Part shown: in pieces, positions 9,074 through 51,615 of the stretch
Numbering within the stretch: the stretch's first letter is position 1
Layout: the number at the start of each line of letters is the position of its first letter
Made by a program: the position numbers and the translations under genes
DNA from: Pseudomonadota bacterium
GTDB taxonomy: Bacteria; Desulfobacterota; Binatia; UBA12015
Reading direction: 5' to 3'
NCBI GenBank assembly: GCA_005777805.1
Contig: SXLG01000013.1
Coordinates: 976-64,975 of the forward strand
DNA: 64,000 nt
Notes under the pieces: model-generated
Told to the model about the DNA's origin: nothing
Seen by the model: only the letters and a program-made list of their open reading frames with translations
The model's database searches: none

Positions 9074-9082
9074 TCTGAACGG

Positions 9083-9115: not shown

Positions 9116-9133
9116 GTCCTATCTCCCCCCGGG

Positions 9134-10696: not shown

Positions 10697-10995
10697 TTTC
10701 CGCTTGATCTCGCCCGCCCGTGTGGCCGCGCCAGCGACAAGAGCCCGGCTTCGCCACGCGATACTGCGGCCTCTGACGGCGGCGATGGCGCCTCGGACCT
10801 GGACCAGCGACCGCTCAGGGGTGGCCGGAATCATCGTCTTGTCATGCTGTGCCGAGACGCTGGGTGGGCGCGGGCCAATGACAGCGCGAGGGGCGGCCGC
10901 GAGGTCCTGGGGCTTGCCGGGATCGGACCCTCGATGAGCAGGCATCATGACCCGCACCGGCGTGCCTCTCAGGCCAGCGGGGCGGAGGCCGGAGT

Positions 10996-30421: not shown

Positions 30422-30466
30422 GAGAGGCCTCCAGGCTTGATCGAACGTGTTTTCGGTCGGCTGGGG

Positions 30467-31488: not shown

Positions 31489-31679
31489 GCGATCGCTCCG
31501 GGCCGAACCCGGGCGCGTGCACGCCGAGACCCGGCCCGCGTCTCGGGGATCGCCGGCGGAGCGGTTCGCGATCTTGTTTGCTCGTGCATTGTGGATCATC
31601 AACGCTGGGGACAGCCTGAGCGATGAGAGCCGCAGCGCCGTGGTGCGAGAGCACGGGCAGAGCGGCCGCGGGGGAGAGT

Positions 31680-38800: not shown

Positions 38801-40126
38801 CTAGAGTGGCACGCCGAGCTTGCGCGCGGCACGCCACGAGGTCTCGAAGAGGAGCCGCCAGAGGATCTCCCCGCAGCTCCCGAGGCCGAGCCAGGGCGGC
38901 AGGAAGAACGGCACCCAGGCGATCGAGACGAAGATGAAGGCCATCGCGCGTGCGGCCGCGTGACGCAGGGGCGCGGCGACGCCGCGGAAGAGACCTGAGC
39001 GCGTGGGCGAGTCGTTCCACCAGCGCGCGGCGAGCACGCCGAGGCCGTTGGCCAGACCCCACAGGATGAAGCCGAGCCACGCCGAGGGCGGGTAGGTGCC
39101 GGGCCCGAGGACCTTGAGCGCCCCCCAGACGTGCCAGAGTCCACTCGCGACAAAGACCGCCAGCACGTTCAACGCGACGTGACGGCGATTACCGCCGAGC
39201 GGGATGTACACGTAGTTGCGCAGCCAGACGCCGAACGAGATGTGCCAGCGCCGCCAGAACTCGGCCACCGAGCGCGCGCGCCAGGGCCGGTCGAAGTTCT
39301 CCATCGTCGCGAAGCCGAGCAGGCGACCGAGCGCCACCGCGACGTCGGTCCAGCCCGAGAACACGATGTAGAACTGAAAATAGAGCTCGAAGACCCAGAG
39401 CCAGAGGCGTTCCACCGTGACGCCGCCACCGCCGGTGGCGAAGACGAGATCGCTGGCTCGGCCGAGATAGAAGCCGCCAATCATGACTTTGAGGCAGCCG
39501 AACAAGAGCCGTCCCACGAGCGGTCCCGCGGCGCGCAGCCAGTCGCGCAGATCCGCCCAGGTGTCGACCGCGGGACCGCTCCCGCGGCTTGCTGCCATCT
39601 GTTCGGTCGTCTCGATCGGGCCATTGACGAAAGTCGGGAAGAAGAGCGTGGCGAGGAGGAACTCGCGCAGCGTCCGCGGCGCCACGCCACGGCTCCTGCG
39701 GTCGACCAGATAGGCCACGCAGCGCAGCCACCAGACGTTGGTCGCAAACGCCCAGAACTCGCGGATGTGGCTCGTGTTGCCGGTGAACCAGGCCTCCGGC
39801 AAGAACGCGGGATAGAGGAGAAGCAGGAGGGCGAGCGCACTCGCGGCGAACGTTCCGGCGCGGCCGGGCACGCGCTCGATGCAGCCAAAGAAGGCCAGCG
39901 AGAAGGCCAGCGCGACCGCCGTCACGGGCAGCGAGCCGAGCAGAGCCAGGCTCGCCACCGAGAGCCCGACCAGCCCCCACTCGCGCCCCCGCCTCCCGAG
40001 CGGCGCCAGCGCGATGCCGAGTGCGCAGGCGAGCGCGCCGTAGAGGACGACCCGAGCGAAGAGGCTGTGACGGGCCTCGAAGATACCGACGCCGAGATCC
40101 CACAGCTCGCCGCCGATAAGATTCAT
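38801..40126 (-). CDS. MBOAT family membrane O-acyltransferase (AlgI/DltB/PatA-like)
   Basis: Start MNLIGGELW. Conserved MBOAT blocks FWRRWHISFGVWLRNYVYIPLGGNRRHVALNVLAVFVASGLWH (catalytic His region). The upstream 268 codons of the track ORF are Arg-rich and non-coding. Confidence 0.8.
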   Translation of the reverse strand: MNLIGGELWDLGVGIFEARHSLFARVVLYGALACALGIALAPLGRRGREWGLVGLSVASLALLGSLPVTAVALAFSLAFFGCIERVPGRAGTFAASALALLLLLYPAFLPEAWFTGNTSHIREFWAFATNVWWLRCVAYLVDRRSRGVAPRTLREFLLATLFFPTFVNGPIETTEQMAASRGSGPAVDTWADLRDWLRAAGPLVGRLLFGCLKVMIGGFYLGRASDLVFATGGGGVTVERLWLWVFELYFQFYIVFSGWTDVAVALGRLLGFATMENFDRPWRARSVAEFWRRWHISFGVWLRNYVYIPLGGNRRHVALNVLAVFVASGLWHVWGALKVLGPGTYPPSAWLGFILWGLANGLGVLAARWWNDSPTRSGLFRGVAAPLRHAAARAMAFIFVSIAWVPFFLPPWLGLGSCGEILWRLLFETSWRAARKLGVPL

Positions 40127-40140
40127 GACGCTGGCCCCGG

Positions 40141-41262
40141 TCACAGGCGGTGCCCGCGCACGACGCCTGCGGGCCAGAGGCCGCGTGCGTCGAGCAGATC
40201 CCAGACCGCGTGGCTCGCCAGGAAATGGGCGTCCCGGCCCCAGCGCCGCGTGCCCGGCACGCAGAGTTCGGTCGTGGCGACCGCCGCCGCATGTTCCGCG
40301 AAGGCCGGTGTCAAATCGGCGCAGGGCGCGATGCCAGCCAGGGCCGCGCAGAGATCGTCGTCGGGGGCCGTTTCCGCAAGCGGGCAGGGTGGTGCGATCA
40401 GGATCGCGAGTCGCGCGTCCTGTGCAGCGGCGGCACGGGCGAGTGACGTGATTTCGCGGGCGAGTTGCGCGCGGGCAGGCTTGCGCTCGGCCGGGGACAC
40501 GAGTGGTGCGGGCCGCTCGATGCGAACTGCGGTTGATCGCGCCGCGGTATCGTCGTCGCGCAGAGGCCCATGGCCGGCGAGATCGACCAGGCCGCTGGCC
40601 GGGGGCAGCAGGTCCTCGCCGTCGGCGGGTGCCGGCCGGGCTCGTGGTGGTGACACCGTGGCGGCGAGGTCGGCCTCCGGATCGACCAGCACGACGACCA
40701 GAGCGGGTGTGAAGCGCGGGCCGCGCGCTTCGAGCCAGCGTCGCTGCTGGGCCGTCGCATAACCGGGTAGCGTTGCGTTGATTCCGGCCACGCGGCGGCC
40801 GAGCGTCCGGTCGGCGAGGAGTGCGATGCGCGTCGAGAGCCGATCCTCGCGCGCCACCATCAAGCCATCGGCGGTCTCGTTGCCGAGCACGAGCACCCGC
40901 ACCTCGTCGGCCCGCGGTGTTGCTGGCCAAGGTTGGTCGGCCTGGCCCTCGGCGTTGATCCGCAGGGGCGTGGCGAAGCCGCCCGTGCAGGAGCGCACCT
41001 GTGCGGTGAGCCCAGGCGCGAAGGTCCAGCCCACGTCGTCGCTTGCGACCAGCAGAGCCGCGTCGTCACCGACGCAAAGCGGCCCACCTTCGATGCCCGA
41101 GCGGAGGCGCGCCAGCGCCAGCGCGGCGACGAGCCCGAGGGTGGCCGCGGCGAGGCGCGGGCCACGGCGACGGGCCCCCACGAGGCGAGGGCCGTCAAGC
41201 GAATAGGTGGAGTCGAGCGGCATCGGCTTCGGGTGGAATGTTTCCGCGATCGCGGCCCGCAA
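40141..41262 (-). CDS. Putative periplasmic SGNH-like partner of the MBOAT (AlgX/AlgJ/DltD-like), signal-anchored
   Basis: Immediately upstream of the MBOAT (15 bp gap). N-terminal hydrophobic anchor AATLGLVAALALARL. VLVLGNETADG resembles the SGNH block I / AlgX_N 'GN(S/E)' region. Weak and context-driven. Confidence 0.4.
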   Translation of the reverse strand: MRAAIAETFHPKPMPLDSTYSLDGPRLVGARRRGPRLAAATLGLVAALALARLRSGIEGGPLCVGDDAALLVASDDVGWTFAPGLTAQVRSCTGGFATPLRINAEGQADQPWPATPRADEVRVLVLGNETADGLMVAREDRLSTRIALLADRTLGRRVAGINATLPGYATAQQRRWLEARGPRFTPALVVVLVDPEADLAATVSPPRARPAPADGEDLLPPASGLVDLAGHGPLRDDDTAARSTAVRIERPAPLVSPAERKPARAQLAREITSLARAAAAQDARLAILIAPPCPLAETAPDDDLCAALAGIAPCADLTPAFAEHAAAVATTELCVPGTRRWGRDAHFLASHAVWDLLDARGLWPAGVVRGHRL

Positions 41263-41279
41263 GGCAACGCCGGCGAGGC

Positions 41280-43556
41280 TCAGTGGCTCCCGCTCGGCGG
41301 CGGGCCGATCTCCACCCCTGCGAACACCCGCGCCAGGGGTTGGTCGACGCCGACCTGCTCGAGCGCGATCTCGAGCCGCCAGCGGCCGTGCGCCGCCGGC
41401 GGTGGCAGCAGCAGCAGCGAGACCGGTTGACGGCTATGCGCCGGCACGTCGAAAGCGAGCCTCGATTCGAGCCGAGTCGGCACGATTCGCCCGTCGGGTC
41501 CGTGCCAGCGATGTCGCAGAACCACCAGGCCCTCGGGGCGTGCGTCGGCCCCCGGCAGGGCGCAATCACTATGATTGACGAGCATGAGAGGTACCCGCAC
41601 GGCCACCGGAATGAGGCTCAAGCGCTCGGGCACCACGACATCCACCAGGTCGATGTTGCGGCGGCAGGCTGCGGGCAGCGGCGCGCGTGGCGTGCCCTCC
41701 AGCGTGGTGTCGTGCAGCGCCGCCGAGCGTATGGCCAGCGCTGCCGCTAGGTCGGGCTCCGTCCCCGTCGCGTCGTCATCAACCCGCAGGATCCGGTCTC
41801 CAGCGAAGGTTTCGACCACGCTGAGCCGGCGCGGCAGAGGCATGGCCCAGCGCGCCAATTCGGGCGCGGTGAGAGCGTCCCCGCGCAGCAGGATCCAACG
41901 CAGATGAGTCAGCGCGACCAGCCGGTCGAGTGCCGTCGCGTCGGGCAGGTCGCGCACCGCGGCCGCGATCAGGCCGGCGGCCGGCGGCGGGTAGGCGGTG
42001 TAGCCGTTGAGCAAGGGCCAGAAGGCCTGCGTGCTGGCGACCATGGCCCGGGCGTTGCGCAAATTGCCGATTGGATCGTCGGCGCCGGTCGGTCCGGGGA
42101 TCTCGAGCACGGCTTCGCCCGCGGCGTGGTGCTCGAGCCAGCGATGCGCCGCCGCCGCCGACGCGCCGAGTCCCGAAGCTTCCACCGGGGCGGGGTGCGG
42201 GGCGGCAGTCCAGAGGCAGGCGAGCGCGAGGGCTGACGCCACGAGCAGGCGTGCCGCGGGTCGCATTCGATCGAGCAGCGGTGCGGCGAGGAGTCCCGCC
42301 AGCGCGGCGAGCATCGACGCGACAAGCAGCGAAAATCGGACGGGGCCGCGCATCGACGAAAAGCCCGGCACCCATGCGTACAGGAGTTTGTAGGGCAGGG
42401 GCATGACGCCCCCACCGGGGAGGACGAAATCCGGCCCCGCAGAGAGCACCACCCCGACCAGCGCCACGCTCGCCAGCCCCACGGCCGGCGAGAGCAACTG
42501 GGCACCGCTCGCCCTCCCCGTTGGTTGGGGCCGCCCGAACCTGCGTCCGACGAGGCCGATCGCCACCACCAGCAGTGTCACCGGGCCGGCCCGGCCGACG
42601 AACTCGAACGAGAAGTACTGCCAGGGCATCCACGAGAACGCCCGGATCCACTCCGGCGGGAAGGCCGGGATTCTCCCTTGACCACGACCTTCGAGGTAGG
42701 GCAGTGCCGCCGGCAGCAGGGCCAGCGAGGCCAGTGCCGTGGCGAGCAGTACGCCCACGCCGGCGCGCCAGCGGCGCGGAGCCCCGAGGAGGCGGGTTGC
42801 GGCGTAGACCGGCACGGCGATGAAAGTAAAAAAACCGAGATAGACGCACGACAACGCCTGGAGGGCGAGTGCGGCCCCGAGGCCAGGGAGCCAGCGCCGA
42901 CGGCCGCGCTCGAACCAGAGATCGACGGCGAGGAGGGCCAGCGGCAGCCAGGCGGTGCCGAGGTACTGCGGCTGCGGCAGCGTCTTCACGCGCAGGGGCG
43001 TGAAGGTGTAGGCGGCTCCGGCCAGCAATGCGGCGGTGAAGCTCCCGGTGTGGTGGCGCACGTAGAGGAACATGCCGAGTCCGGCGAGAGCGAAGCTTTC
43101 GACGAGAAAGCCCTCGAACATGGTTACGGCGTCGCCGCTCAGCGCCAGCAGGGGGGCGGTGAAGGGCAGATGAGCCAGCATATTTTCCGAGCCGAGGATC
43201 GCGCCCGGCAGCGGGTGGTAGATGTTGCCGTCGAGCAGATGTGACGGATCGTGCAGGGCGGCCCACGCGACCCAGGCGAGGATCCACAGGTTGAGCAGGA
43301 GGTCGGCGTTGGCCATGGCACCGATCGGGCCCGGCGAGTGCGGCAACAGGGCCGCGGAGCCGAACCAGGGTCGCAGCAGCCAGGGCACGGCGAGCGCGTA
43401 GAAGGCCAGGGCTACGAGCGCTTCGCCGACCCCGCGCAGACCGCCGGCGCGGGTCCGCCCGGGCGTGGCGTCGCTCGCGCAAATACCGGGTGTGCTGGAC
43501 TTCGGGGCGGGGCTGCCGCTGCCGGTCGGCGTGGCGCTCGTCTCAGTCGGTGACAT
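41280..43556 (-). CDS. Large polytopic membrane protein with C-terminal periplasmic domain (possible GT-C / YfhO-like glycosyltransferase)
   Basis: Start at MSPTETS (overlaps the 3' end of the sulfatase-like gene by about 14 nt). More than 10 TM helices (LVALAFYALAVPWLL.., ADLLLNLWILAWVAWAAL..). C-terminal about 250 aa soluble domain. Confidence 0.5.
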   Translation of the reverse strand: MSPTETSATPTGSGSPAPKSSTPGICASDATPGRTRAGGLRGVGEALVALAFYALAVPWLLRPWFGSAALLPHSPGPIGAMANADLLLNLWILAWVAWAALHDPSHLLDGNIYHPLPGAILGSENMLAHLPFTAPLLALSGDAVTMFEGFLVESFALAGLGMFLYVRHHTGSFTAALLAGAAYTFTPLRVKTLPQPQYLGTAWLPLALLAVDLWFERGRRRWLPGLGAALALQALSCVYLGFFTFIAVPVYAATRLLGAPRRWRAGVGVLLATALASLALLPAALPYLEGRGQGRIPAFPPEWIRAFSWMPWQYFSFEFVGRAGPVTLLVVAIGLVGRRFGRPQPTGRASGAQLLSPAVGLASVALVGVVLSAGPDFVLPGGGVMPLPYKLLYAWVPGFSSMRGPVRFSLLVASMLAALAGLLAAPLLDRMRPAARLLVASALALACLWTAAPHPAPVEASGLGASAAAAHRWLEHHAAGEAVLEIPGPTGADDPIGNLRNARAMVASTQAFWPLLNGYTAYPPPAAGLIAAAVRDLPDATALDRLVALTHLRWILLRGDALTAPELARWAMPLPRRLSVVETFAGDRILRVDDDATGTEPDLAAALAIRSAALHDTTLEGTPRAPLPAACRRNIDLVDVVVPERLSLIPVAVRVPLMLVNHSDCALPGADARPEGLVVLRHRWHGPDGRIVPTRLESRLAFDVPAHSRQPVSLLLLPPPAAHGRWRLEIALEQVGVDQPLARVFAGVEIGPPPSGSH

Positions 43557-45891
43557 AGCCGAGAGCCTCCAGCCTGCGGCGAACCTCGGGGTCGCCGATT
43601 CCGGGGCGGGCGAGGGGGGTATCGCCGCGTCCTCTCCAAAGACAGAGCTTGATGCCAACTTCCGGTGCCGGGCAGGTCGGCGCCTGGGTTGTCTCCAGGC
43701 GCGGGTCGCGGAGATCGACCTCGATCCCGCCAGCGGCGGCAGCCCCGGCAGTCGCGGGCGCCCGTTCGAGCCTGCCGGCGTCGGCGCCGAGTTCGACCAC
43801 CAGCGGCCCGGCCGTCGCGTCTGCGAGCGCGACGAGGATCAGGTCGCGCGGACTCTTGCCCGACGGATCGACGGTGCGATCGAAGCGGAACCCCGCCGTG
43901 GTGTCGGGGCTGGTTTCCGCACGCGCGTTCAGAGTGGTGCCATCGGGGGAGAGTGAGAGCCGGAGCGGCTGCGCACCGGGATGGCGATCGAGCGTGACGA
44001 AGCTGCCGCTGTGCGGCCGGCTGCGCAGGACAAGCGCCACGGGGCCCGACTTGGCGGCGACCCATCGGGCCTGCACGCCGCGCTCGCGCAGCGGGGCGCG
44101 AGCCTGTTCGAGGACCGCCGTGGCGCGGGCGGCGGCAGCAACCTCGTCGGCCGGTCGGGGGCGCTTTTCGGTGGGATCGGCGCGCAGGTCGAAGATTTCG
44201 CGCGTCGAGTGGTCGAGACCCTCGATCAATTTGAGATCGCCGATCCGACTCGCGAAGCGAGCCGGGTACTGGGCCTGCGTGGCGGTCGCGAGCAGTGGGT
44301 CGGCGGGCAGGGCGGGGTTTGCGAGGACCTGGGCCAGGGGGCGTCCCTCGAAGCCCGCCGGGATCGGAAGGCCAAGCCAGTCGAGGATCGACGGGGCGAG
44401 GTCGAGTGTCTGCACGGGACGCTCCACGACCCGATTCCTCGCCGTGGGGCCGGCACCGGGCAAGCGGATCACGAGTGGCACGTGCAGCAGTTCCTCGAAG
44501 AGACTCTGGCCGTGGAAGAAGCGGCCGTGCTCCCAGAATTCCTCGCCGTGGTCGGCGGTGATCACGATCAGGGTCTCTTCGAGCCGCTGGTGCAGGCGTA
44601 GCCAGTCGAGCAGACGGGCGAGCTGCGCATCGATCGAGCGGATCGCCGCATCGTAGAGCGCCACGATGTGGCGGCGGTCACGCGCGTCGTAGCGGCCGGC
44701 ATCGGCCCCCTCCACGTCGGAAAAGGGTACGGCTACGGGGCCTGAGTAGTCGGGCTCGGCGAAGGCCTTGATCCACTCGCGGGGGGGCGCGTAGGGCGTG
44801 TGGGCATCGAGGTAGTGCAGGTAGAGCGCGAAGCGGTCGTGCCCGTGCTCGTCAAGCCAGTGCAGGGCCGCGTCGGTGATCTGGCGGGCATCGAGCGTGC
44901 CGGAGAGGAGACGATCGAAAGTCCGCGGTGGTTTGCCGTGCAGATCGCTCGCGAGCCAGAGCGGGATCCAGGCGTTGTTGACGATGGCGGCGCTGGCGAT
45001 GCCCTGGCGCGCGATGGGCTCGGTCAGCGTTGGGTCGCGTGGCCCAGGGAGGAGACGCGAGGTGAAGAGCTGCGGGATCGAGGGCAGGGTCATGGGCGCG
45101 TTGGCGTGGGCGGCGGCGAAGCGGATGCCGTCGCGGGCCAGGGCGTCGATGACCGGTGTGGTGTCGCGCCCGTAGCCGTGGCTCCCGACATGGTCGGCGC
45201 GCAGGCAGTCGATTGTGATCAATAAAAGATTGTGCGCGGCGGAGCGGGTTTCCCCGGTGCGCAGGCGGGTGGCGCTCCACAGCAACGCGACCGGGTGTGC
45301 GGGCGCGGCCGCGCCGAGGTTGCGCGAGCGCAGGACGATGCGGCCACGGCGCCCGGCCAGCGCGCCGAGGTCGAGGCGTTCGTCCCACCAGCGCCGATCG
45401 CTCTCTTGGCGGCGCAGGTCGATGCGGCGCGCGAGCAGAAGGGTCTCGTCACCATCGTCCTCGGGGACGAAAACGATCTCGACCTCGAGCGGCTCGGCAA
45501 GCTGCGGCAGTTCGCTGAGGAAGACCATCGAGGACGCGGCGAAGCCGGTGTCGAGCCAGGCGTGCGCCGGCATCTCGAGCGCGGGCAGGCGGATCTCGGC
45601 CCCCACCGTCGTGGCAAGGACCGCGCGAGCTTCGCCGTGCGCGCCGCGAATCGCGAGTTCGCTCGCGCGCGGCAATGCGATCAGGTCATCGCCGGCCGCG
45701 ACGAGGAGATCGAGCGCTGGTGGCGCGGCGCGGGACTCTGCTGGCGCCGCCGGAGAGGGGTTGCGCGTCTCGGCGACGGGGGACGGCGGGGCTGGCCGTG
45801 GCGCGGCCGCGAGTGTCGGCCGGGAGGCGAGCGTGGCGGCGACGCCGAGGGCCAGGGCGCGTGCCAGCAATCGAACGGGGCGTGCCGACAT
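43543..45891 (-). CDS. Exported sulfatase-fold (alkaline phosphatase superfamily; LtaS/EptA/OpgB-like) hydrolase/transferase with an N-terminal accessory domain
   Basis: Signal peptide MSARPVRLLARALALGVAATLASRPTLAAA. Core motif LLLITIDCLRADHVGSHGY..PVIDALARDGIRF; later HHGEEFWEHGRFFHG (metal/His block). It lacks the C-x-P-x-R formylglycine motif, so it is probably not a true sulfatase. Confidence 0.65.
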   Translation of the reverse strand: MSARPVRLLARALALGVAATLASRPTLAAAPRPAPPSPVAETRNPSPAAPAESRAAPPALDLLVAAGDDLIALPRASELAIRGAHGEARAVLATTVGAEIRLPALEMPAHAWLDTGFAASSMVFLSELPQLAEPLEVEIVFVPEDDGDETLLLARRIDLRRQESDRRWWDERLDLGALAGRRGRIVLRSRNLGAAAPAHPVALLWSATRLRTGETRSAAHNLLLITIDCLRADHVGSHGYGRDTTPVIDALARDGIRFAAAHANAPMTLPSIPQLFTSRLLPGPRDPTLTEPIARQGIASAAIVNNAWIPLWLASDLHGKPPRTFDRLLSGTLDARQITDAALHWLDEHGHDRFALYLHYLDAHTPYAPPREWIKAFAEPDYSGPVAVPFSDVEGADAGRYDARDRRHIVALYDAAIRSIDAQLARLLDWLRLHQRLEETLIVITADHGEEFWEHGRFFHGQSLFEELLHVPLVIRLPGAGPTARNRVVERPVQTLDLAPSILDWLGLPIPAGFEGRPLAQVLANPALPADPLLATATQAQYPARFASRIGDLKLIEGLDHSTREIFDLRADPTEKRPRPADEVAAAARATAVLEQARAPLRERGVQARWVAAKSGPVALVLRSRPHSGSFVTLDRHPGAQPLRLSLSPDGTTLNARAETSPDTTAGFRFDRTVDPSGKSPRDLILVALADATAGPLVVELGADAGRLERAPATAGAAAAGGIEVDLRDPRLETTQAPTCPAPEVGIKLCLWRGRGDTPLARPGIGDPEVRRRLEALGYVTD

Positions 45892-45973
45892 CTCAAGATC
45901 CTATCGGGCCCGCGGCGGGGGCACTACGGCATGTCTCGCGCAGCCGTTTCGATCGATTGCCACGCGCACGATC

Positions 45974-48805
45974 CTATCGGGCCCGTGCCGAAGGGAGATC
46001 CAAAGTAGACTCTGCCGTGCCAGGGATCGGCTCGGGAAGCGCGCGGGCGGTACCGGGCACGGAGCTTTCCTCTGGCCCGCGCGTCGAGACGCTGGGTTCA
46101 CCATCGAGCGTCACGCCGGCCCCCGCGAGCATGACGCTCGGGTGCGCCGCCTCGACCAGCGCCACCAGATAGACGCCCGCGTTGAGTGGCGGGGCAAGCG
46201 CGCGAACCACGACCTGTTCATCTCCGGCTTCGAACTCTGGCGGGTCGAGGAGGGAGACTGTGCCCGCGAGCTCGCCCCTGCGGGTGATCCAGTGCAGCTC
46301 GAGCTGTCCCGGCATTCGGCCTAATTTTTTATTTCCGGCCGGAGTCGGCAGCAGCGGCAACGCGGCGCCCGAGCGTGGTAGAGGCGGGGCGCCGCGCGGC
46401 AAGATCTCGTCGGCGATGAAGGTCGCGTCGAGCAACACCAGCGTGCCGGTGGGGCCGAAGGCCTTCTCGTAGGGAAGGATGTCGACGAAGGCGCGTCCCA
46501 GGGGGCGGTCGCCGTCGCGCGTCAATAGATCGACGTCATGCGGTCCGTCGGCGAACGGTACGCGGGCGTCGAGCCACGTGCGCAGCCGGCCACCGGGCGC
46601 CACCGCGAGCGGCAGCAGGGCGTGGGTCTCCTCGGCGAGGACGATGCGGCCGCCGGGGGTACGCCACACGAGCCGTACCGCCTGGGGCGCGAGAGGCGTG
46701 CGCCGGGCCTCTGCCGCAGTGTCGGGCTCCCCGTGTGGCCCGGCCCCAGCGGAAAGAGACTCGACGTGCGTGTCGGGGGTTTTGTCGACGGTGTCGCGTC
46801 CGTCGGCGGGCTCGATTCCCGCGACGGGCGGTGTGGCGCGAGCGGCCAGCGCCGGGTGCACGAAGACCCGGGGCCGGCCGCTCTCCAGGTCTGTCGTGAA
46901 TTCGATGGGAATACGGCGCGGGTTGCCGGGAAGTAGACGCTTGCGCCCGGTGCTGCCGGGAGTGCGTGGCGCCGCGAGCGTCGCGATGTCGGAGGTGCGT
47001 GCGGGCGCCGGGCCGAGTGTCCAGGTTTCGACTCGTGCGGTCTGACCGAGTGGAGCGAGGCCGCCCGCCTGAACTGCCGCATCTGACCAGCGCGCGCCGA
47101 GGTCTGTGCCCGGGCTCGCCCCGGCGAGATCGCGCCGCAGCGCGACCGAGCGGAAACCGAGCGCACGGAGTGCTTGCGCGGCGGGTGCCGAGGGGAGTTC
47201 GCTCGCCAGCGTCTCGACTTGCTCGATCAGGGGCGAACTGAAGGAGTTGTAGCAACCGGCGAGCGGGTTCCGGGCCCACGCCGAGAGCAGCAGGTGCTCG
47301 GCCACGTCAAGTCGCTGGGCGCGGGGCTCGTGGACCGGAAGCGGCAGATCGACCACCGGACCCTCGGGTAATGCGCGCCACAGGGCGATCTCGTCGTCGG
47401 GCGGGCGAGCGTCCCAGGCGCGCAGGCGCAGCGTGCGGCCCCAGATCGGCCGGCCGAGCGTGCTCGAGAGGGCGAACGCCAGCAGGGCCAGTGCCGTGCC
47501 GATGGCGACCAGGCGGCGCGCTCGTCCGTGAAAAAATTCGAGCAGAACGAGAGTGCCGAATCCGGCCAGCGCGGCCAGCGCGAGATCAAAGCCCTGCCGC
47601 AGGTTCGCCAGGCCGCGCACGGCCGCGAGTCCCGGCACCAAGTGGGCGAGCGCCACCAGCGGCGAGGGCAGAGCCCATGCCGTGCCGGGGATCACGAGCG
47701 TGCGCATGGCACACCACAGGCAGAGCAGGCCGCCGGCGAACCAGGCAAGGCGCGGGTCGTCGCCGCCGCCCCAGGTGTGCGCGGCGTCGCCGTGCGCGCC
47801 GGTGCCAGCGCCGCACGTGCCTGTGTCATCGCCCGGGCGGCCTTCACCGCCGCAGGTGCGCCGGCCGCGAAGACGGTCGGCGAGGGCGACGAAGGCGAGC
47901 GTCAAGACGATGGGTCCGGGGAACCCTTCCGCGCCGGGCTGCAGGGTTGCCGGATCGAGCAGGATCGAGGCTCGTCGGCTCAGAATCGGCCACGTCGCGC
48001 CGGTCTCCAGGTAGGGCCCGTAGAGCCAGCCGGCTGCGGCGGCGACGGGGAGTCCCGCCAGCGCGAGCAGACCGAACGTGGTGGCGAGGCCGCGGCGGCG
48101 TCGGGGCAGGAGGAAGAGTGCGTACACGCCACCGAGCAGCAGGGTGGCCAGCACGGGGTAGAGACTCTCGCCCAGGGTCAACACAGAGACCGTGGCGAGC
48201 CCGAGAGCGTCGCGCAGCCGCGCTCGCACCACGCTGCGGTGCAGGAAGAGCAGGACGAGCGGTGCCCACAGGTCGCCGTGCACGAAGGGGTGGCTCGGGT
48301 CGGCCAGCCGGTCGGGCACGAGGAGGAAGGCCAGGGCCGCGACCAGCGCCGCCCCCAGCGATCCGGTGAAATGGATCGAGAGCGCCAGCATCGCCAGGCC
48401 GGCGATCCACAAGGCCGCCACGAAGGCCGTGTTGAAGGCGAGGATCGGCTCGGCGCCGAGGGCCCACGCGGGCGCGGCGAGCAGGCCGAATCCGAGCATA
48501 TGCTCGCCGAGCGTCCAGGCGCGCGGCATCGGAAAGCACGGGCCGTCCTCGTCGCGCACCGAAAATGGATCTTCCACGAGGAGACGCGCATTGCGCGCCA
48601 CCGTCGCGACGACCATCTGCTGGTCGAAGTGGTCGAGCCGGTCGAGGCCGGGCACGGCGTGCTCGGCCAGTCGCGCTGGCCAGGGCAAGAGCCGCAACGG
48701 ATCGGGCAGCACCTCGCGCACCACGAGCAGGGCCGCGGCCAGCAACACGAGCGCGGCCGCGGCCCAGCGCCACACCTGCGTGCCGCGAGCCGGGCGAGCG
48801 TTCAC
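45974..48805 (-). CDS. Very large (943 aa) polytopic membrane protein, putative GT-C-like glycosyltransferase, with a beta-rich C-terminal extracytoplasmic domain
   Basis: GTG start overlaps the stop of the upstream methyltransferase (GTGA). At least 12 TM helices over the first about 500 aa. C-terminal about 400 aa hydrophilic. Confidence 0.5.
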   Translation of the reverse strand: MNARPARGTQVWRWAAAALVLLAAALLVVREVLPDPLRLLPWPARLAEHAVPGLDRLDHFDQQMVVATVARNARLLVEDPFSVRDEDGPCFPMPRAWTLGEHMLGFGLLAAPAWALGAEPILAFNTAFVAALWIAGLAMLALSIHFTGSLGAALVAALAFLLVPDRLADPSHPFVHGDLWAPLVLLFLHRSVVRARLRDALGLATVSVLTLGESLYPVLATLLLGGVYALFLLPRRRRGLATTFGLLALAGLPVAAAAGWLYGPYLETGATWPILSRRASILLDPATLQPGAEGFPGPIVLTLAFVALADRLRGRRTCGGEGRPGDDTGTCGAGTGAHGDAAHTWGGGDDPRLAWFAGGLLCLWCAMRTLVIPGTAWALPSPLVALAHLVPGLAAVRGLANLRQGFDLALAALAGFGTLVLLEFFHGRARRLVAIGTALALLAFALSSTLGRPIWGRTLRLRAWDARPPDDEIALWRALPEGPVVDLPLPVHEPRAQRLDVAEHLLLSAWARNPLAGCYNSFSSPLIEQVETLASELPSAPAAQALRALGFRSVALRRDLAGASPGTDLGARWSDAAVQAGGLAPLGQTARVETWTLGPAPARTSDIATLAAPRTPGSTGRKRLLPGNPRRIPIEFTTDLESGRPRVFVHPALAARATPPVAGIEPADGRDTVDKTPDTHVESLSAGAGPHGEPDTAAEARRTPLAPQAVRLVWRTPGGRIVLAEETHALLPLAVAPGGRLRTWLDARVPFADGPHDVDLLTRDGDRPLGRAFVDILPYEKAFGPTGTLVLLDATFIADEILPRGAPPLPRSGAALPLLPTPAGNKKLGRMPGQLELHWITRRGELAGTVSLLDPPEFEAGDEQVVVRALAPPLNAGVYLVALVEAAHPSVMLAGAGVTLDGEPSVSTRGPEESSVPGTARALPEPIPGTAESTLDLPSARAR

Positions 48806-49452
48806 TCTTTCTCCGCGGCGGCGAGCTGCGAGATGCCGACCAGCGGCATGCGGTAGGGCAACCGATCCATCAGCCGCGCGAGGGCAAGCGGGGTCACGTT
48901 GGGGAAGAACAGGCCGCAGCGTTCATGACGGTCGAGTCGCCCGCACGCGGCCTGCATCAGGCGGCGCAGGTGACCCGGGCTGAAGCGCAACGTGCCGCGT
49001 TCCTCGGCCCGGGTCAGTGCCAGTATGAGATGACCGGGGTGGATGCGGTTGGGCTCGAACACGACGATGCGTCGCCGTGCCACGCGCCACATTTCGGCCA
49101 GTGCGGCACGCGGTTCGTCGAGGTGGTGCAGCAGCTCCCAGCAGGTCACGAGGTCGAAGGCCCCGCGCTCGAAGGGCAAGGCCGTTGCCTCGGCACGGAT
49201 ACGGCCCTTGACTGGATTCGCGGCGAGCATTCCGCCGGCATAGTCGCAGGCGACGACCTTGATGCCCGCCGGATAGAAGGCGCTGGAGAAGCCGCTGCCC
49301 GCACCGACGTCGAGTACGCGCCGCACGTCGCGCAGCAGGCCGTGCGCCGCCAGGTGTCGGATGCGCTGCCGGGCAAAAATCTCGACGACCGGATGCGCGG
49401 CCGGGCGGTAACGTCCGCCGGCTTCCCAGAATGGGCTCTGGGCGTCGCTCAT
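48802..49452 (-). CDS. Class I SAM-dependent methyltransferase
   Basis: Start MSDAQSPFWEAGGRY overlaps the DUF2304 stop (ATGA). VLDVGAGSGFSSAFYPAG (motif I); LVTCWELLHHLDEPRAALAEMWRVARRRIVVFEPN (motifs II-III). Confidence 0.7.
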   Translation of the reverse strand: MSDAQSPFWEAGGRYRPAAHPVVEIFARQRIRHLAAHGLLRDVRRVLDVGAGSGFSSAFYPAGIKVVACDYAGGMLAANPVKGRIRAEATALPFERGAFDLVTCWELLHHLDEPRAALAEMWRVARRRIVVFEPNRIHPGHLILALTRAEERGTLRFSPGHLRRLMQAACGRLDRHERCGLFFPNVTPLALARLMDRLPYRMPLVGISQLAAAEKE

Positions 49453-49874
49453 TCGTTCGCGTCGTCGCCGGGTTCTCTGCGGCCAGCGAGCTCGGCACGC
49501 AGGAGAGCGACTTCCTGCGCCAGCAGCTTCACCTGGAGACTCATGCCGGAGAGGCGGACGGCGTAGTTCAACGAGACCACGAGCAGGAAGAGCAGTCCGA
49601 AGAAGAAGAGGGTCGAACTCGGCGTCCACGCCCCGACCAGGTGGGTCAGAAACCGCACCGAGTCAAACCACGCGATCCCGACCATCATGGCGACGGCGAC
49701 GCCGGTCCAGATCGGGGTGTACTCCTCGCGCAGGCGTCCGCGTTGCACGAGCCACAGGACGGCGGCGAGGAAAGTCGCGCACACCACCAGGCCGACGATG
49801 CGGGTCGCCGCACCCTCGGGCTGGCTCAACGCGAGCGCGCGCAGGTTCTCCGGGCTGAGCAGAGTGGGCTTCAT
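49449..49874 (-). CDS. DUF2304-like small membrane protein (commonly partnered with GtrB-type GT2 enzymes)
   Basis: About 140 aa, 3-4 TM helices (IVGLVVCATFLAAVLWLV; IWTGVAVAMMVGIAWF; LFFFGLLFLLVVSLNYAV). C-terminal amphipathic helix. Sits 22 bp downstream of the GT2. Confidence 0.55.
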   Translation of the reverse strand: MKPTLLSPENLRALALSQPEGAATRIVGLVVCATFLAAVLWLVQRGRLREEYTPIWTGVAVAMMVGIAWFDSVRFLTHLVGAWTPSSTLFFFGLLFLLVVSLNYAVRLSGMSLQVKLLAQEVALLRAELAGRREPGDDANE

Positions 49875-49896
49875 GAACGGAGTCTCCCTTGCCCGG

Positions 49897-50631
49897 TCAC
49901 GAGCGCAGCGCGCTGGCGGTGAGCCGCCAGGCCCGCACCGTCGCGAGCAATATCTTGTAGGGATAGTACAGCGCCTTCAGGCCGGCGTGCATCGTCTTGC
50001 GGCCGGCCGGACTCGGGGCCATCGTGACCGGCACCTCGACCAGTCGGAAGCCGCGGCGATGCAGCACCAGCAGGACGTCGATGTCGGGAAAATCGCTCGG
50101 ATAAAAGTCGCGACAGCAGAACTCGATCACCGGGCGCCGTAGTGCCTGCAAGCCCGAAGTCGGGTCGGCGATCCGTGGTCCGCCGAAGGCACGCAGCAGG
50201 CGTTGCAGGAAGAGTCTCCCGGCATTGCGGGCGGCATCCATGCGGTAGCCGGAGTCGGTGAGGAAGCGCGAGCCGATCACGAGATCGGCCGTGCCCTGGT
50301 GCAGGGGTTCGAGCAGCCGAGGCAGGAACGCCGGGTCGTGCTGGCCGTCGGCGTCGAGCTGCACGACGTAGGAGTAGTCGTGCGCCAGAGCCCATTTGTA
50401 CCCGGTCTGGAGGGCTGCGCCGTAGCCAAGGTTAAAGGGGTGCGAGGCGACCTGGGCGCCGGCCTGCCGTGCCAGTGTCGCGGTCTCGTCGTGCGAGCCG
50501 TCGTCGATCACCAAGATGTCGAGTGCGCCGTCGGCGCCGCGCACCGCTTCGACGACGCGGGTGATCGAGCGGGCCTCGTTCAAGGCCGGGATGATCACCA
50601 AGGTGCGGCGGGACTGTGCGGACGCGAGCAT
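49897..50631 (-). CDS. GT2 polyprenyl-phosphate sugar synthase (GtrB/ArnC/DPM1-like)
   Basis: TLVIIPALNEARSI..ILVIDDGSHDET..VVQLDADGQHDP. About 244 aa soluble GtrB-type. Confidence 0.8.
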   Translation of the reverse strand: MLASAQSRRTLVIIPALNEARSITRVVEAVRGADGALDILVIDDGSHDETATLARQAGAQVASHPFNLGYGAALQTGYKWALAHDYSYVVQLDADGQHDPAFLPRLLEPLHQGTADLVIGSRFLTDSGYRMDAARNAGRLFLQRLLRAFGGPRIADPTSGLQALRRPVIEFCCRDFYPSDFPDIDVLLVLHRRGFRLVEVPVTMAPSPAGRKTMHAGLKALYYPYKILLATVRAWRLTASALRS

Positions 50632-50811
50632 GAAGGTGGAAGGGGCGAGGCCAACCTCCGTACCACGATCGGGGCGCGGGCCGAACCCGAAAGATCGCCA
50701 CGCCAGAGCCCCGGGTGCGACCCCACGCCGAGCCAGATCGAGCCATCGGGGTGGGTCGCGCCGGACCTCTCGGGTTGTTCGCGGCCCCCACCCCTGGCCA
50801 CACCGGACGAA

Positions 50812-51615
50812 TCAGCCTGGGCCGGGGCGCGCTGTCGGCCTCGGCCACGATCCGTCCGGTGCGGACGGCCGATCGGTCGGGGTTCCGTCGGGCAAGCGCG
50901 GCCGCTCGCCGATCCGTCGGGCTGGCGCCCCGCCCACGATGGACCAAGGCTCGGTATCGTGGGTGACGACCGCGCCGGCGCTCACCACGCAGCCATCGGC
51001 GATCCGCACCCCGGGCAGCACGACCGCGTTGGCGCCGATCCAGACGTCGCTGCCGATGGTCACCGGTGCTTCGGCGTGACCCAGGAACATCATCGGCACG
51101 CGCGGGTCGTCGAAGCGGTGCTGCGAGGTCACGATCACCGCCCCCGGGCCGATCATCACCCAGTCGCCGATGCGGAGGCCGCCGCGGCCGTAGACGAAAG
51201 CGCCGGCGTTGATCATCAGGTTGCGGCCGGCGGCGATGCCGTAGGCATGGGACAGGCGGGCGCCGGGGTAGAGGTAACAGAACCCGTCAAGCTGACGGAA
51301 AATGAGCTTGTAGAGCGCGTAGCGCAGCGCGAAGCCCTCGACGCCGGGCCACGAGCGCAGCAACGTGCCGAGGTACTCCTCGAGCAGCACCTTGACGATG
51401 CGACCGGGCGAGACCGAGCGGCGATAGTTCCGCAACAGTTGCCCGAAGCTCGCGCGCGGTGCTGGGGCGGGGGCGTCGGCCGGCACGGCGCGATGCTGGC
51501 ACGCCCGCGCCGGCGCGCGCAACGTGGCGGGGGAGTCGGTCGGGGAGTCGTTCGGGTGGGCTCCGCGGACCGAGCAGGCTGCGACGCTGGCCCTCTCTGG
51601 CAACGCGACGGGCAC
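50812..51615 (-). CDS. Hexapeptide-repeat (left-handed beta-helix) sugar O-acetyltransferase (WcaB/CysE/LacA-like)
   Basis: C-terminal hexapeptide repeats GANAVVLPGVRIADGCVVSAGAVVTHD. N-terminal helical region LRYALYKLIF.. as in the WcaB family. The true start may be downstream of 51615 (first about 55 codons are low-complexity). Confidence 0.6.
   Translation of the reverse strand: MPVALPERASVAACSVRGAHPNDSPTDSPATLRAPARACQHRAVPADAPAPAPRASFGQLLRNYRRSVSPGRIVKVLLEEYLGTLLRSWPGVEGFALRYALYKLIFRQLDGFCYLYPGARLSHAYGIAAGRNLMINAGAFVYGRGGLRIGDWVMIGPGAVIVTSQHRFDDPRVPMMFLGHAEAPVTIGSDVWIGANAVVLPGVRIADGCVVSAGAVVTHDTEPWSIVGGAPARRIGERPRLPDGTPTDRPSAPDGSWPRPTARPGPG

Follow-up and report, generated by a model that had tools for sequence, protein, structure and literature searches.

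The window, i.e., the whole stretch of 64,000 nucleotides analyzed here, contains between positions 38801 and 51615 a run of co-oriented genes on the minus strand. The gene layout of the window shows that this interval is filled by nine genes, and calling the genes of this metagenome contig independently gave the same nine, instead of the ten counted in an earlier reading of the letters alone (the sequence-only reading). These genes are:

50812..51615, minus strand, Hexa, hexapeptide-repeat acetyltransferase (Pfam Hexapep, 6.5e-16)
49897..50631, minus strand, GT2a, glycosyltransferase of the polyprenyl-phosphate type (Pfam Glycos_transf_2, 4e-25)
49449..49874, minus strand, DUF2304 small membrane protein (Pfam DUF2304, 4.9e-20)
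48802..49452, minus strand, MTase1, class-I SAM methyltransferase (Pfam Methyltransf_11, 1.2e-15)
45974..48805, minus strand, GTC1, 943-aa polytopic GT-C-fold glycosyltransferase
43543..45891, minus strand, Sulf, exported 782-aa sulfatase-fold enzyme (Pfam Sulfatase, 1.1e-38)
41280..43556, minus strand, GTC2, 758-aa paralogue of GTC1 (hhalign versus the GTC1 family)
40141..41223, minus strand, SGNH-like anchored periplasmic protein
38801..40144, minus strand, MBOAT membrane O-acyltransferase (Pfam MBOAT, 8e-16)

As described before, the genes overlap or nearly touch each other, with four overlapping junctions (ATGA for DUF2304/MTase1, GTGA for both MTase1/GTC1 and SGNH-like/MBOAT, and 14 nt for Sulf/GTC2) and gaps of 180, 22, 82, and 56 nt at the others. 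NCBIfam was used beside Pfam for family calls, and Pfam confirmed Hexapep, Glycos_transf_2, DUF2304, Methyltransf_11, Sulfatase, and MBOAT in the cluster; the host organism is uncultured and all assignments of function are homology-based.

At least 12 independent MAG loci of the Binatia type share the order GT2-DUF2304-MTase-[GT-C]-Sulf-[GT-C]-SGNH-MBOAT, with amino acid identities of 43-74%; some related loci do without GTC1 and some without GTC2. The nine-gene cluster is a real and evolutionarily conserved grouping, beyond chance, and the conservation of gene order which the sequence-only reading had proposed as a check was indeed found. Hexa is similar to maltose O-acetyltransferase and WcaF (NCBIfam maltose O-acetyltransferase, 1.4e-23), and its previous designation as a hexapeptide O-acetyltransferase holds at the family level in Pfam and NCBIfam. 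It does not hold as a member of the conserved core: outside the window, the gene is present in the closest relative, L002, alone (tblastn matches in L001 and L002 only), and it is a lineage-specific accessory.

GT2a (244 aa) has no TM helix, no hydrophobic segment being found in it, and is of the GacI/PpgS/DPMS/ArnC-like type. Its best NCBIfam matches were PpgS (2e-27) and AglJ (3e-26), both below cut-off, and its best PDB matches were Dol-P-Man synthase (DPMS; 4e-13) and ArnC (6e-13) over residues 4-213. The DUF2304 gene begins 22 nt after GT2a and its product exceeds the Pfam gathering score. GacJ and Rv3632 are DUF2304 proteins which stimulate GacI and PpgS, respectively, and by analogy the protein encoded here is most likely a GacJ/Rv3632-type activator of GT2a. 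The earlier proposal that a GtrB/DPM1-like GT2 and a DUF2304 protein supply a polyprenyl-phosphate sugar is backed at the family and fold level by Pfam, NCBIfam, and PDB matches. In Mycobacterium tuberculosis, PpgS (Rv3631)/Rv3632 and the GT-C protein Rv3779 function in the galactosamine decoration of arabinogalactan. The pairing of a GT2 with a DUF2304 activator is common to both systems, PpgS being the best NCBIfam match of GT2a at 96 bits versus a cut-off of 370. The two systems need not share a sugar or an acceptor, and in the mycobacterial system no sulfatase-fold gene or MBOAT is adjacent. MTase1 (216 aa) is cytoplasmic and translationally coupled on both sides by its ATGA and GTGA overlaps, in agreement with the ATGA-coupled SAM methyltransferase noticed earlier, and it directly follows DUF2304 in L002, L005, L007, L011, L014, L016, and L017.

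GTC1 has C-terminal periplasmic beta-sandwich domains and belongs to a large family without a Pfam model. As for mycobacterial GT-C enzymes, its best bacterial structural matches were AftD and AftA, with the highest identity at 15-16%. When the GTC1 and GTC2 families were compared by hhalign, a probability of 100% and an E value of 1.3e-52 over 658 columns were obtained, and BLASTP of the two proteins gave 31% identity across the N-terminal 230 aa. From these comparisons, GTC2 is a full-length paralogue of GTC1 and a predicted second membrane glycosyltransferase of the GT-C type. Its YfhO match is weak (23 bits, under the gathering score of 28.5), and Asp85 is invariant in GTC2. The claim of two GT-C-like membrane proteins, the 943-aa one being GTGA-coupled, is borne out at fold level; a placement outside GT-C was looked at, and both proteins were placed within it.

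[quoted passage not shown] Its metal-ligand motifs TID(228)CLRAD and TAD(447)H(448)GEE are invariant. Thr268 (codon 45088-45090) occupies the formylglycine position within the motif MTLPSI, which stands where sulfatases carry CxPxR, and in an alignment to sulfatase 4upl this Thr lies under the Cys. The stretch NAPMTLPSIPQ[LI]FTS does not vary among 12 orthologues, all orthologues have TxPS[ILV] in place of CxPxR, and a Thr stands at this position in every homologue with a locatable motif (107/107, of 120 listed). The Thr in place of the formylglycine residue rules out a formylglycine sulfatase, and we do not count Sulf among true arylsulfatases; the Pfam fold, the MTLPSI motif, and the signal-peptide-like N-terminus agree with the exported sulfatase-fold protein lacking CxPxR that had been described.

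In GacH and LtaS the nucleophile is a Thr. With LtaS, EptA (MCR), OpgB, and BcsG, Sulf shares the alkaline-phosphatase-superfamily fold, the Thr at the nucleophile position, and a D...DH metal site, and its ADHGE block aligns with MCR-1 and MCR-2. However, this similarity is limited to about 60 residues (E about 1e-8 versus MCR/EptA, DHG block only), whereas Sulf overall is nearer to arylsulfatases and phosphonate-monoester hydrolases (E about 1e-19). Furthermore, the multi-TM domain of the LtaS, EptA, and GacH kind is absent from Sulf. Because of this nearer relationship and the lack of a multi-TM domain, a role as transferase rather than hydrolase is only putative. Two independent fusions link Sulf to GT-C proteins, namely an in-frame GTC1-Sulf fusion in L002, from which the Sulf signal peptide is precisely removed, and a second GT-C::Sulfatase fusion, P0326. 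As in LtaS and EptA, a polytopic membrane domain is followed in these variants by an extracytoplasmic catalytic domain, but they carry a GT-C instead of a 5-TM lipid-binding domain and the Sulf of the window has no TM domain. In L004 a GTC1 homologue is flanked by sulfatase-fold genes, and an Armatimonadota genome has Thr-type sulfatase-fold genes within a polysaccharide cluster.

The matches of Sulf might suggest that the genes are mere neighbors without a shared pathway, Sulf being a periplasmic catabolic esterase for nutrient scavenging (a sulfatase, phosphodiesterase, or phosphonate-monoester hydrolase) among unrelated envelope genes. Arylsulfatases, phosphonate-monoester hydrolases, and choline sulfatases match Sulf best in sequence, its homologues are publicly annotated as 'arylsulfatase A-like enzyme', and in L025 a homologue lies amid unrelated genes. 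However, the replacement of CxPxR by TxPS[ILV], the constant place of Sulf in at least 12 loci, with MTase1/GTC1 on one side and the SGNH/MBOAT pair on the other, its 14-nt overlap with GTC2, and its fusion to GT-C in two independent proteins make this explanation highly improbable.

The MBOAT is of the AlgI/DltB/PatA type, with a WHIS catalytic-His motif at residue 300 and matches to DltB in NCBIfam (9e-22, below cut-off) and PDB (1e-17). The SGNH-like gene lies immediately upstream of it in 14/14 loci with both genes, and in the window the two are translationally coupled, as fits the O-acylation pair proposed earlier. The SGNH-like protein has an SGNH fold, an N-terminal membrane anchor, and the invariant features DAH (331-333), Ser130, Ser337/His338, and a C-terminal RGHRL. 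An AlgI/DltB-type MBOAT with an anchored SGNH-fold partner resembles PatA/PatB, AlgI/AlgJ/AlgX, DltB/DltD, and the C-terminal domain of OatA. Unlike in these two-component O-acyltransferases, the canonical block-I Ser is missing from all 23 family members, so that the protein possibly does not act as a conventional acyl-enzyme transferase, and its nearest structure is CgnD and not AlgX, AlgJ, or PatB. The label AlgX/AlgJ-like is thus retained for the SGNH fold and rejected as an identity: Pfam gave no ALGX or Lipase_GDSL match for the protein of the window, and the canonical Ser is lacking.

In related genomes the cluster runs on into another methyltransferase gene, another GT2, a gene for a B12-radical-SAM enzyme, and one more GT-C/MTase block. 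The window has the orthologues of these at 25.7-31.6 kb and 3.3-13.2 kb. These genes and a Wzx-like gene are:

30718..31602, minus strand, MTase2 (Pfam Methyltransf_11, 5.5e-19)
27510..28244, minus strand, GT2b, TM-less GT2 of 244 aa (Pfam Glycos_transf_2, 6.5e-26)
25763..27283, minus strand, B12-binding radical-SAM enzyme (Pfam B12-binding and Radical_SAM)
3280..13175, plus strand, five-gene block (Pfam), consisting of the following five genes
3280-6789, plus strand, PMT_2/HEAT GT-C (Pfam)
6786-7625, plus strand, block MTase (Pfam)
7718-9073, plus strand, Amidohydro_2 (Pfam)
9134-10696, plus strand, GT2+MTase fusion (Pfam)
10947-13175, plus strand, unknown 742-aa membrane protein
814..2307, plus strand, Wzx-like membrane protein, MOP family (Pfam Polysacc_synt, 2.5e-17)

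The counterpart of MTase2 directly follows MBOAT in 12 related loci (tblastn identities of 47-60% to the post-MBOAT gene in L005-L018), and the copy in the window is displaced by about 7 kb. GT2b, whose orthologue comes after MTase2 in related loci, is unusually conserved (74-81% identity across loci) and matches AglJ (3e-17) and PpgS (4e-10) in NCBIfam, both below cut-off. The B12-radical-SAM gene adjoins GT2b in the window and in L011, L012, and L017, with 82-86% identity in those three loci; its best NCBIfam match, HpnJ (2.4e-37), is far below cut-off. The five-gene block keeps its gene order in L005, L007, L009, L010, L012, L014, L017, and L018 (tblastn, 42-76% identity), and its counterpart abuts GT2b convergently in related loci. 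The Wzx-like protein is the sole candidate flippase within the window, 36 kb from the cluster, and its gene has no tblastn match in related loci. No flippase of the GtrA or Wzx type and no genes for acceptor-backbone synthesis or a ligase were found in the nine-gene cluster, and with MTase2, GT2b, the B12-radical-SAM gene, and the PMT_2/GT2-MTase block located elsewhere in the window, the cluster cannot be called the complete pathway that it had looked like.

If the acceptor were a membrane lipid, the product of the locus would be a lipoglycan or a complex glycolipid in the manner of PIM/LM/LAM or glycosylated hopanoids, with the GT-C enzymes elongating a glycan anchored to the lipid and the MBOAT acylating this glycan. 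The several GT2 genes resembling polyprenyl-phosphate-sugar synthases and the several GT-C genes per locus are consistent with this, as are HpnJ as best match of the radical-SAM enzyme and weak HpnB matches of both GT2 proteins. As these scores lie far below their cut-offs (129 versus 578 bits for HpnJ, 39 versus 379 bits for HpnB) and lipid-anchor synthesis genes are absent from the cluster, a lipid acceptor seems unlikely, although the data do not separate it from a polysaccharide.

In the N-glycosylation of Haloferax volcanii (AglJ/AglD, AglP, AglR, AglS/AglB), an archaeal system with a dolichol carrier and a protein acceptor, a GT2 charges polyprenyl phosphate with sugar, the lipid-linked glycan is the substrate of a SAM methyltransferase, and a Wzx-like flippase and GT-C enzymes outside the membrane take part; the system is not known to have sulfatase-fold or MBOAT components. 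By a similar logic the cluster might glycosylate an S-layer or other surface protein using an AglJ/AglD-type GT2, a methyltransferase of the AglP type for the lipid-linked sugar, and AglS/AglB-type GT-C enzymes, while Sulf would add phospho-forms like PptA/EptC and MBOAT/SGNH would O-acetylate the protein-bound glycan. GT2, methyltransferase, and GT-C logic are in common, both GT2a (3e-26) and GT2b (3e-17) match AglJ, and PMT_2-type GT-C genes are conserved neighbors. However, every NCBIfam match, including AglJ, is far below cut-off, the glycan-acting AftD and AftA score equally well for GTC1 (top identity 15-16%), no WWDxG-type oligosaccharyltransferase motif was seen when the GTC1 and GTC2 sequences were read by eye, and the loci have no conserved candidate acceptor protein, so we regard a protein acceptor as improbable.

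We consider the chances slightly better than even that the cluster serves this uncultured Binatia bacterium as a module for extracytoplasmic glycan decoration. On the cytoplasmic face, GT2a and its DUF2304 partner would charge polyprenyl phosphate with a sugar from a nucleotide sugar, as do GacI/GacJ and PpgS/Rv3632. The sugar, free or lipid-linked, would probably be O-methylated by MTase1, and in the lineage of the window the hexapeptide acetyltransferase may add an acetyl group. After flipping by an enzyme encoded outside the cluster, GTC1 and GTC2 would, judging from their fold, act on the periplasmic side and move the sugar onto an acceptor glycan. Exported Sulf, possibly in physical association with GTC1, might then, by means of Thr268 and a bound metal, transfer to the same glycan, or perhaps cleave from it, a phosphodiester-linked substituent, for example glycerol-phosphate or phosphoethanolamine, in parallel to GacH acting after GacL. 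An acyl group, probably acetyl, would cross the membrane by way of the MBOAT, and, by analogy with PatA/PatB or AlgI/AlgJ/AlgX, the anchored SGNH-fold partner would place it on the glycan, by a chemistry that is uncertain without the Ser nucleophile. The cluster most likely produces a lipid-linked sugar and adds it, outside the cytoplasm, to an envelope glycan, which it probably also acylates and phospho-modifies. The functional categories of the sequence-only reading (lipid-linked donor, GT-C pair, Thr-type sulfatase-fold exoenzyme, acylation pair, and methyltransferase) are all backed at the family or fold level.

The same reading did not recognize a described pathway, but the succession of GT2 and DUF2304, GT-C, and sulfatase-fold phosphotransferase is that of GacI/J-GacL-GacH. 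In the side-chain module of the streptococcal group A and serotype c carbohydrates (GacI-GacJ-GacK-GacL with GacH; SccN/M/P/Q with SccH), a TM-less GT2 and its DUF2304 partner make a polyprenyl-phosphate sugar, a GT-C moves the sugar onto the glycan outside the membrane, and the next step, addition of a phospho-substituent, falls to a metal-dependent sulfatase-fold enzyme with a Thr nucleophile whose gene is in the same cluster. In contrast to GacH, which is LtaS-like with 11 TM helices, Sulf is soluble, exported, of an arylsulfatase-like branch, and joined to a GT-C in fusion variants only. The Binatia cluster also differs in lacking a Wzx-type GacK equivalent and rhamnan genes, in having extra methyltransferases and the MBOAT/SGNH pair, and in its host, which belongs to Binatota and not to Firmicutes. 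The logic of the cluster is known from streptococci, mycobacteria, and archaea, and three components are unusual here.

Gene placement by codon-position G+C and ORF analysis at 38801-51615 of the window, in which overall G+C is 70%, gave nine genes:

50812-51615, minus strand, Hexa, hexapeptide acetyltransferase
49897-50631, minus strand, GT2a, GT2 glycosyltransferase
49449-49874, minus strand, DUF2304 protein
48802-49452, minus strand, MTase1, SAM methyltransferase
45974-48805, minus strand, GTC1, GT-C-type membrane protein
43543-45891, minus strand, Sulf, exported sulfatase-fold protein
41280-43556, minus strand, GTC2, second GT-C-type membrane protein
40141-41223, minus strand, SGNH-like, anchored SGNH-fold protein, partner of MBOAT
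38801-40144, minus strand, MBOAT

Several metagenome contigs encode an identical Sulf product; the annotation deposited with the one examined (ENA ERZ27257033 k141_450713), made independently, has these nine genes as well. The sequence-only reading had described ten co-oriented genes; the common orientation stands and the count is corrected to nine. The overlapping or closely spaced junctions that it had reported are real, with an ATGA overlap between DUF2304 and MTase1, GTGA overlaps between MTase1 and GTC1 and between SGNH-like and MBOAT, and a 14-nt overlap of Sulf and GTC2; the remaining gaps measure 180, 22, 82, and 56 nt. Matches of the cluster proteins to Hexapep, Glycos_transf_2, DUF2304, Methyltransf_11, Sulfatase, and MBOAT all exceed the Pfam gathering thresholds. 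Among the labels of MAG homologues of the window proteins are "Candidatus Binatia bacterium" and "Deltaproteobacteria bacterium", Binatia being a class within the candidate phylum Binatota. Scans of 38.3-52.3 kb for sigma-70 promoters and intrinsic terminators showed no excess over shuffled sequence and therefore carry no information on transcript structure, and Rfam and tRNA scans of the whole 64-kb window returned no matches and no tRNA genes. Taken as a whole, the cluster is as it had been observed, and its interpretation as a glycan-decoration pathway is supported in part.

The first part of this interpretation concerns the supply of a lipid-linked sugar. GT2a (244 aa) lacks a hydrophobic segment and matches Pfam GT2 at 4e-25. 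Its top curated-family (NCBIfam) matches are PpgS, a polyprenyl-P-GalNAc synthase (2e-27), and AglJ (3e-26), both well under their equivalog cut-offs, and its nearest solved structures, dolichol-P-mannose synthase (4e-13) and ArnC (6e-13), cover the whole catalytic domain. The DUF2304 protein is likewise above its gathering score (4.9e-20), and the two genes, 22 nt apart and kept as a pair in 7 loci, show the arrangement of GacI/GacJ and PpgS/Rv3632, in which a GT2 without transmembrane (TM) segments adjoins a small DUF2304 membrane protein. GacJ, a DUF2304 protein, associates in a complex with the GT2 GacI, whose GlcNAc-P-undecaprenol synthase activity it boosts, its Mycobacterium tuberculosis homologue Rv3632 stimulates PpgS, and GT2-DUF2304 fusions exist (Rush et al.). 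By this precedent, GT2a and the DUF2304 protein are recognisable as a predicted polyprenyl-phosphate sugar synthase pair, in agreement with the type originally proposed for the GT2. A literature search for DUF2304 returned only streptococcal and lactococcal papers. MTase1 is a generic class-I SAM methyltransferase with weak top matches that include the mycofactocin oligosaccharide methyltransferase MftM. Hexa had been counted in the gene set of the pathway; tblastn across related loci detected it nowhere but in the window contig and its closest relative, L002, and it is therefore an accessory gene outside the conserved core.

Neither Pfam nor NCBIfam has a match for GTC1 (943 aa). The AlphaFold2 model of this protein (pLDDT 80, pTM 0.82) has as structural neighbours STT3B (score 20.1), AftD (19.7; 16% identity, 493 residues aligned), AglB (19.0), AftA (18.9), Pmt4/Pmt2 (17.9), ArnT (16.9), and PglB (16.1), and the predicted fold is unambiguously GT-C, as in STT3/PglB, ArnT, PMT, and Aft/Emb, which bears out the GT-C-like description of this protein. 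In the model, C-terminal beta-sandwich domains, presumably periplasmic, follow the membrane domain. GTC2 (758 aa) is paralogous to GTC1 over its full length, the comparison of the two family profiles giving a probability of 100% and an E of 1.3e-52 over 658 columns. Asp61, in the first loop of GTC1 and nearly invariant in the alignment of 31 homologues, aligns with Asp85 in the first loop of GTC2, which is invariant in 8 sequences. Of the earlier label "GT-C/YfhO-like" for GTC2, the GT-C part is upheld by this paralogy, whereas YfhO (PF09586) is rejected at 23.0 bits against a gathering score of 28.5, over just 140 residues. Weak YfhO matches occur in 3/8 GTC2 orthologues, and GTC1 has none; PTPS_related is weakly matched by 10/31 GTC1 relatives, among which DUF2079 is also weakly matched, and all three families are members of the Pfam GT-C clan. 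The GTC2-family profile found only chance caspase matches among PDB sequences. A word-indexed search with 41 matches had made GTC1 appear to belong to a tiny or lineage-restricted family, a view overturned by an exhaustive HMMER search, which found 14,617 clusters (50% identity) at E<=1e-3 and at least 2,458 at E<=1e-30. As sampled members likewise lack Pfam coverage, GTC1 is part of a large, unmodelled GT-C family rather than a lineage-specific oddity, and this family, having no Pfam model, constitutes an annotation gap.

Sulf matches Pfam Sulfatase at 1.1e-38, and its sequence matches those of arylsulfatases and phosphonate-monoester hydrolases better (about 1e-19) than those of MCR/EptA (about 1e-8, over the ADHGE block only, which aligns to MCR-1/2 and EptA). 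Identity as a true arylsulfatase of the formylglycine (S1) type is nevertheless rejected, since C/S-x-P-x-R is absent and replaced by T-L-P-S-I. Thr268, within NAPM-T-LPSIPQLFTS, occupies the position of the formylglycine Cys and lies under the Cys of sulfatase 4upl in the alignment, so that the reported lack of CxPxR was correct. The T-L-P-S-I motif is unchanged across 12 orthologues from related loci, and Thr holds this position in all 107 homologues with a locatable motif (of 120 listed), including those from other phyla. With the D228 and D447/H448 blocks conserved as well, it is evident that Sulf cannot be a formylglycine sulfatase, and the label "arylsulfatase A-like" on about 100 Sulf homologue clusters is almost certainly a mis-annotation. 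LtaS and GacH use a Thr nucleophile and a metal site and form a covalent glycerol-phosphate intermediate. Like LtaS, EptA, and GacH, Sulf combines the Thr with metal-site residues in an extracytoplasmic sulfatase-fold domain; unlike them, it has no TM segments, just an N-terminus that resembles a signal peptide, the lipid-donor membrane domain being absent, and about 200 uncharacterised residues flank the catalytic domain on either side. With the NCBIfam models of LtaS/EptA/GacH-type families it scores 17-33 bits, where the cut-offs are about 500-1250. The description "LtaS/EptA-like" transferase thus fits the Thr and the metal residues but not the multi-helix membrane domain or the family cut-offs. 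Sulf may act as a transferase or as a hydrolase, and any donor assigned to it is putative. In an Armatimonadota genome, two Thr-type homologues belong to a polysaccharide cluster that also encodes an ABC-2 exporter, GT4 enzymes, and a pyruvyl transferase; the genomic context of a distant homologue in L025 was uninformative.

In L002, at about 80-90% identity, GTC1 and Sulf form a single 1605-aa ORF in which the end of the last GTC1 beta-sandwich (...AGAGVTL) passes directly into the mature N-terminus of Sulf (AAP...). The fusion has lost the disordered tail of GTC1, the spacer between the two genes, and precisely the signal peptide of Sulf, as would be expected of two cooperating periplasmic parts. 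The exhaustive GTC1-family search also recovered a much more divergent protein encoded outside the window (P0326, 983 aa), with a GTC1-type membrane domain at residues 9-532 and Sulfatase plus SGSH_C at 578-963. Its motif is C-R-P-S-L, in which the Cys is retained and the Arg of CxPxR is lost, and it is a second GT-C::sulfatase-fold fusion, independent of that in L002. In L004, two sulfatase-fold genes flank the GTC1 homologue.

The MBOAT protein scores 58.7 bits in Pfam against a threshold of 27, which places it in the AlgI/DltB/PatA group, and DltB structures match at 1e-17; with the conserved His motif WHIS at residues 300-303, its identification as an MBOAT is secure. It falls under the DltB equivalog cut-off of NCBIfam (78 vs 375 bits). 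Upstream of it, the SGNH-like protein (360 aa) has no Pfam or NCBIfam profile match, and its model (pLDDT 84) has an SGNH/GDSL fold after an N-terminal helix. This fold is all that it shares with AlgX/AlgJ, to which it had been likened: there is no ALGX profile match, AlgX and AlgJ are absent among the listed structural matches of the model and from its top neighbours, and the Ser is missing. In 23/23 family members G-[NGD]-[EHQ] stands in place of the block-I "GDS", and the canonical Ser nucleophile is therefore absent from the family, in which D331-x-H333, Ser130, Ser337/His338, four Cys, and a C-terminal RGHRL are invariant. The pairing of SGNH-like and MBOAT genes is constant across related loci, and the Ser-less protein may take part in acylation. 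In several related loci a second SGNH/GT-C pairing is found upstream of GT2a, consisting of Lipase_GDSL_2 (canonical SGNH) followed by a GTC2-like GT-C of 700-710 aa (L005, 2651-5856; L007, 1-3060); Hexa holds that position in the window.

A scan with the SGNH-like family, limited to one genome per species, detected 11 true loci, 2 labelled Candidatus Binatia and the others "Deltaproteobacteria bacterium", "Thermodesulfobacteriota bacterium", or "bacterium", and weaker, partial matches in Bacteroidota and Myxococcota; exact-protein look-ups added six further genomic contexts. When the nine window proteins were used in tblastn, the order GT2a-DUF2304-MTase1-[GTC1]-Sulf-[GTC2]-SGNH-like-MBOAT recurred in the related loci, with 43-74% identity in distant loci and 79-94% in L002, and so the conservation of gene order on which the sequence-only reading had made its proposal depend was found. 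GTC1 and GTC2 are each optional, and in seven loci Sulf directly adjoins the SGNH-like gene. In 12 related loci the genes after MBOAT encode a further methyltransferase and another TM-less GT2, and 3 of these loci then have a B12-binding radical-SAM gene. A convergent abutting block encodes a 684-742-aa membrane protein, (MTase), a GT2+MTase fusion, (Amidohydro_2), MTase, and a PMT_2/HEAT GT-C. Orthologues of all these partner genes are present in the window in scattered positions:

30718-31602, MTase2, second methyltransferase, 47-60% identity to related loci
27510-28244, minus strand, GT2b, second GT2, 74-81% identity to related loci
25763-27283, minus strand, B12-rSAM, B12-binding radical-SAM protein, 82-86% identity to related loci
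3280-13175, plus strand, block from PMT_2 to the 742-aa membrane protein, 42-76% identity to related loci

Between MBOAT and MTase2 the window has an unrelated GST-like gene, a 1112-aa AAA_16 regulator, and an Abhydrolase_10 gene. Given this scattering, 38801-51615 is the operon that is best preserved within a larger glycan locus and not the "complete" pathway it had been taken for. It also contains no flippase gene: no GtrA or Polysacc_synt match was found among the nine cluster proteins, which therefore do not make up a three-component transmembrane glycosylation system of GT-A, dedicated flippase, and GT-C, and the sole candidate in the window, a Wzx-like Polysacc_synt gene at 814-2307, lies 36 kb off and was not found in related loci.

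The best-supported model is a five-step scheme of glycan decoration. GT2a/DUF2304 would load a sugar onto polyprenyl phosphate, MTase1 (with Hexa in the window lineage) would tailor that sugar at the cytoplasmic face, GTC1 and GTC2 would move it after flipping to an envelope glycan, Sulf, in association with GTC1, would add or process a phosphodiester-linked substituent, and the MBOAT/SGNH pair would O-acylate the glycan. Family and fold evidence argues strongly for polyprenyl-P-sugar formation and GT-C transfer as the predicted first and third steps, while the methylation target and the acceptor are what we infer; less probably, the acceptor may be a protein or a lipid rather than the envelope glycan to which the scheme assigns this part. 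The streptococcal sequence GacI/J, GacL, GacH follows the same logic, and mycobacterial and archaeal precedents match it as well. The cluster differs from these systems in the branch and architecture of its sulfatase-fold enzyme, in the coupling of this enzyme to GT-C, and in the added methylation and acylation functions. It is a tentative and rather unlikely proposal that Binatia build a new methylated, acylated, and phospho-substituted envelope glycopolymer or lipoglycan, assembled in the periplasm by an uncharacterised GT-C family in physical complex with a new class of soluble Thr-nucleophile transferases of the sulfatase family; this pair of GT-C and alkaline-phosphatase-fold enzyme, in some cases one polypeptide, could even install sugar-1-phosphate decorations with the polyprenyl-P-sugar phosphodiester as donor. 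A search among Binatota papers that mention glycosyltransferases returned nothing relevant and no description of such a locus. With this cluster, the envelope glycobiology of Binatota, a widespread and still uncultured phylum, gains a defined and conserved set of genes, which raises the questions of what activity a sulfatase-family enzyme has with Thr in place of formylglycine, why a sulfatase-fold enzyme is repeatedly coupled to GT-C, twice as a fusion, and how an MBOAT partner works without the SGNH catalytic Ser. Most worth following are the "arylsulfatase-like" enzymes of the Thr type, together with the repeated fusions that join them to GT-C glycosyltransferases.

Several neighbouring genes deserve mention. 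The GT2b and B12-rSAM genes (25763-28244, minus) have a GC3 of 0.92-0.93 with GC1/GC2 below those of their neighbours, and their products are 74-86% identical across loci, compared with just 43-74% for other proteins there, which reflects either much stronger constraint than in the rest of the locus or recent exchange. The top match of B12-rSAM is the hopanoid enzyme HpnJ, far under its cut-off. MTase2 and GT2b, which are neighbours in all related loci, are separated in the window by an inserted gene for a 648-aa delta-60-repeat/DUF5122 beta-propeller protein (28535-30481, minus). The membrane protein of 742 aa (10947-13175, plus) has 42-46% identity in 8 related loci, no Pfam/NCBIfam match, and no detectable relationship to the GTC1 family (hhalign probability 1.2%). 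Unrelated metabolic genes occupy 13281-25593 (Amidohydro_3, beta-helix/NosD, GNAT, DUF3604, SDR, acyl-CoA thioesterase, molybdopterin oxidoreductase). At 33765-38696, the AAA_16 ATPase-type regulator (minus) and the GST-like gene (plus, convergent on MBOAT) part the cluster from its usual downstream partners, and the GST-like gene follows MBOAT in L002 and L008 too. At 58162-63928 (minus) are encoded a 235-aa protein without family match, a 963-aa protein, and a 724-aa PMT_2-type GT-C; residues 751-905 of the 963-aa protein are a SAM methyltransferase, and because this C-terminal part matches a separate 300-aa gene of L005, the ORF may represent a fusion or have been called too long. Divergent to the cluster (51820-56676, plus) lie two genes. 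The product of one, of 724 aa, has no match beyond a weak VolA/Pla-1 phospholipase-like one; that of the other, of 846 aa and polytopic, weakly resembles polyamine aminopropyltransferases in its central domain. The two are followed by msrA and msrB (56720-58044), and both divergent genes adjoin the cluster in L002 too.
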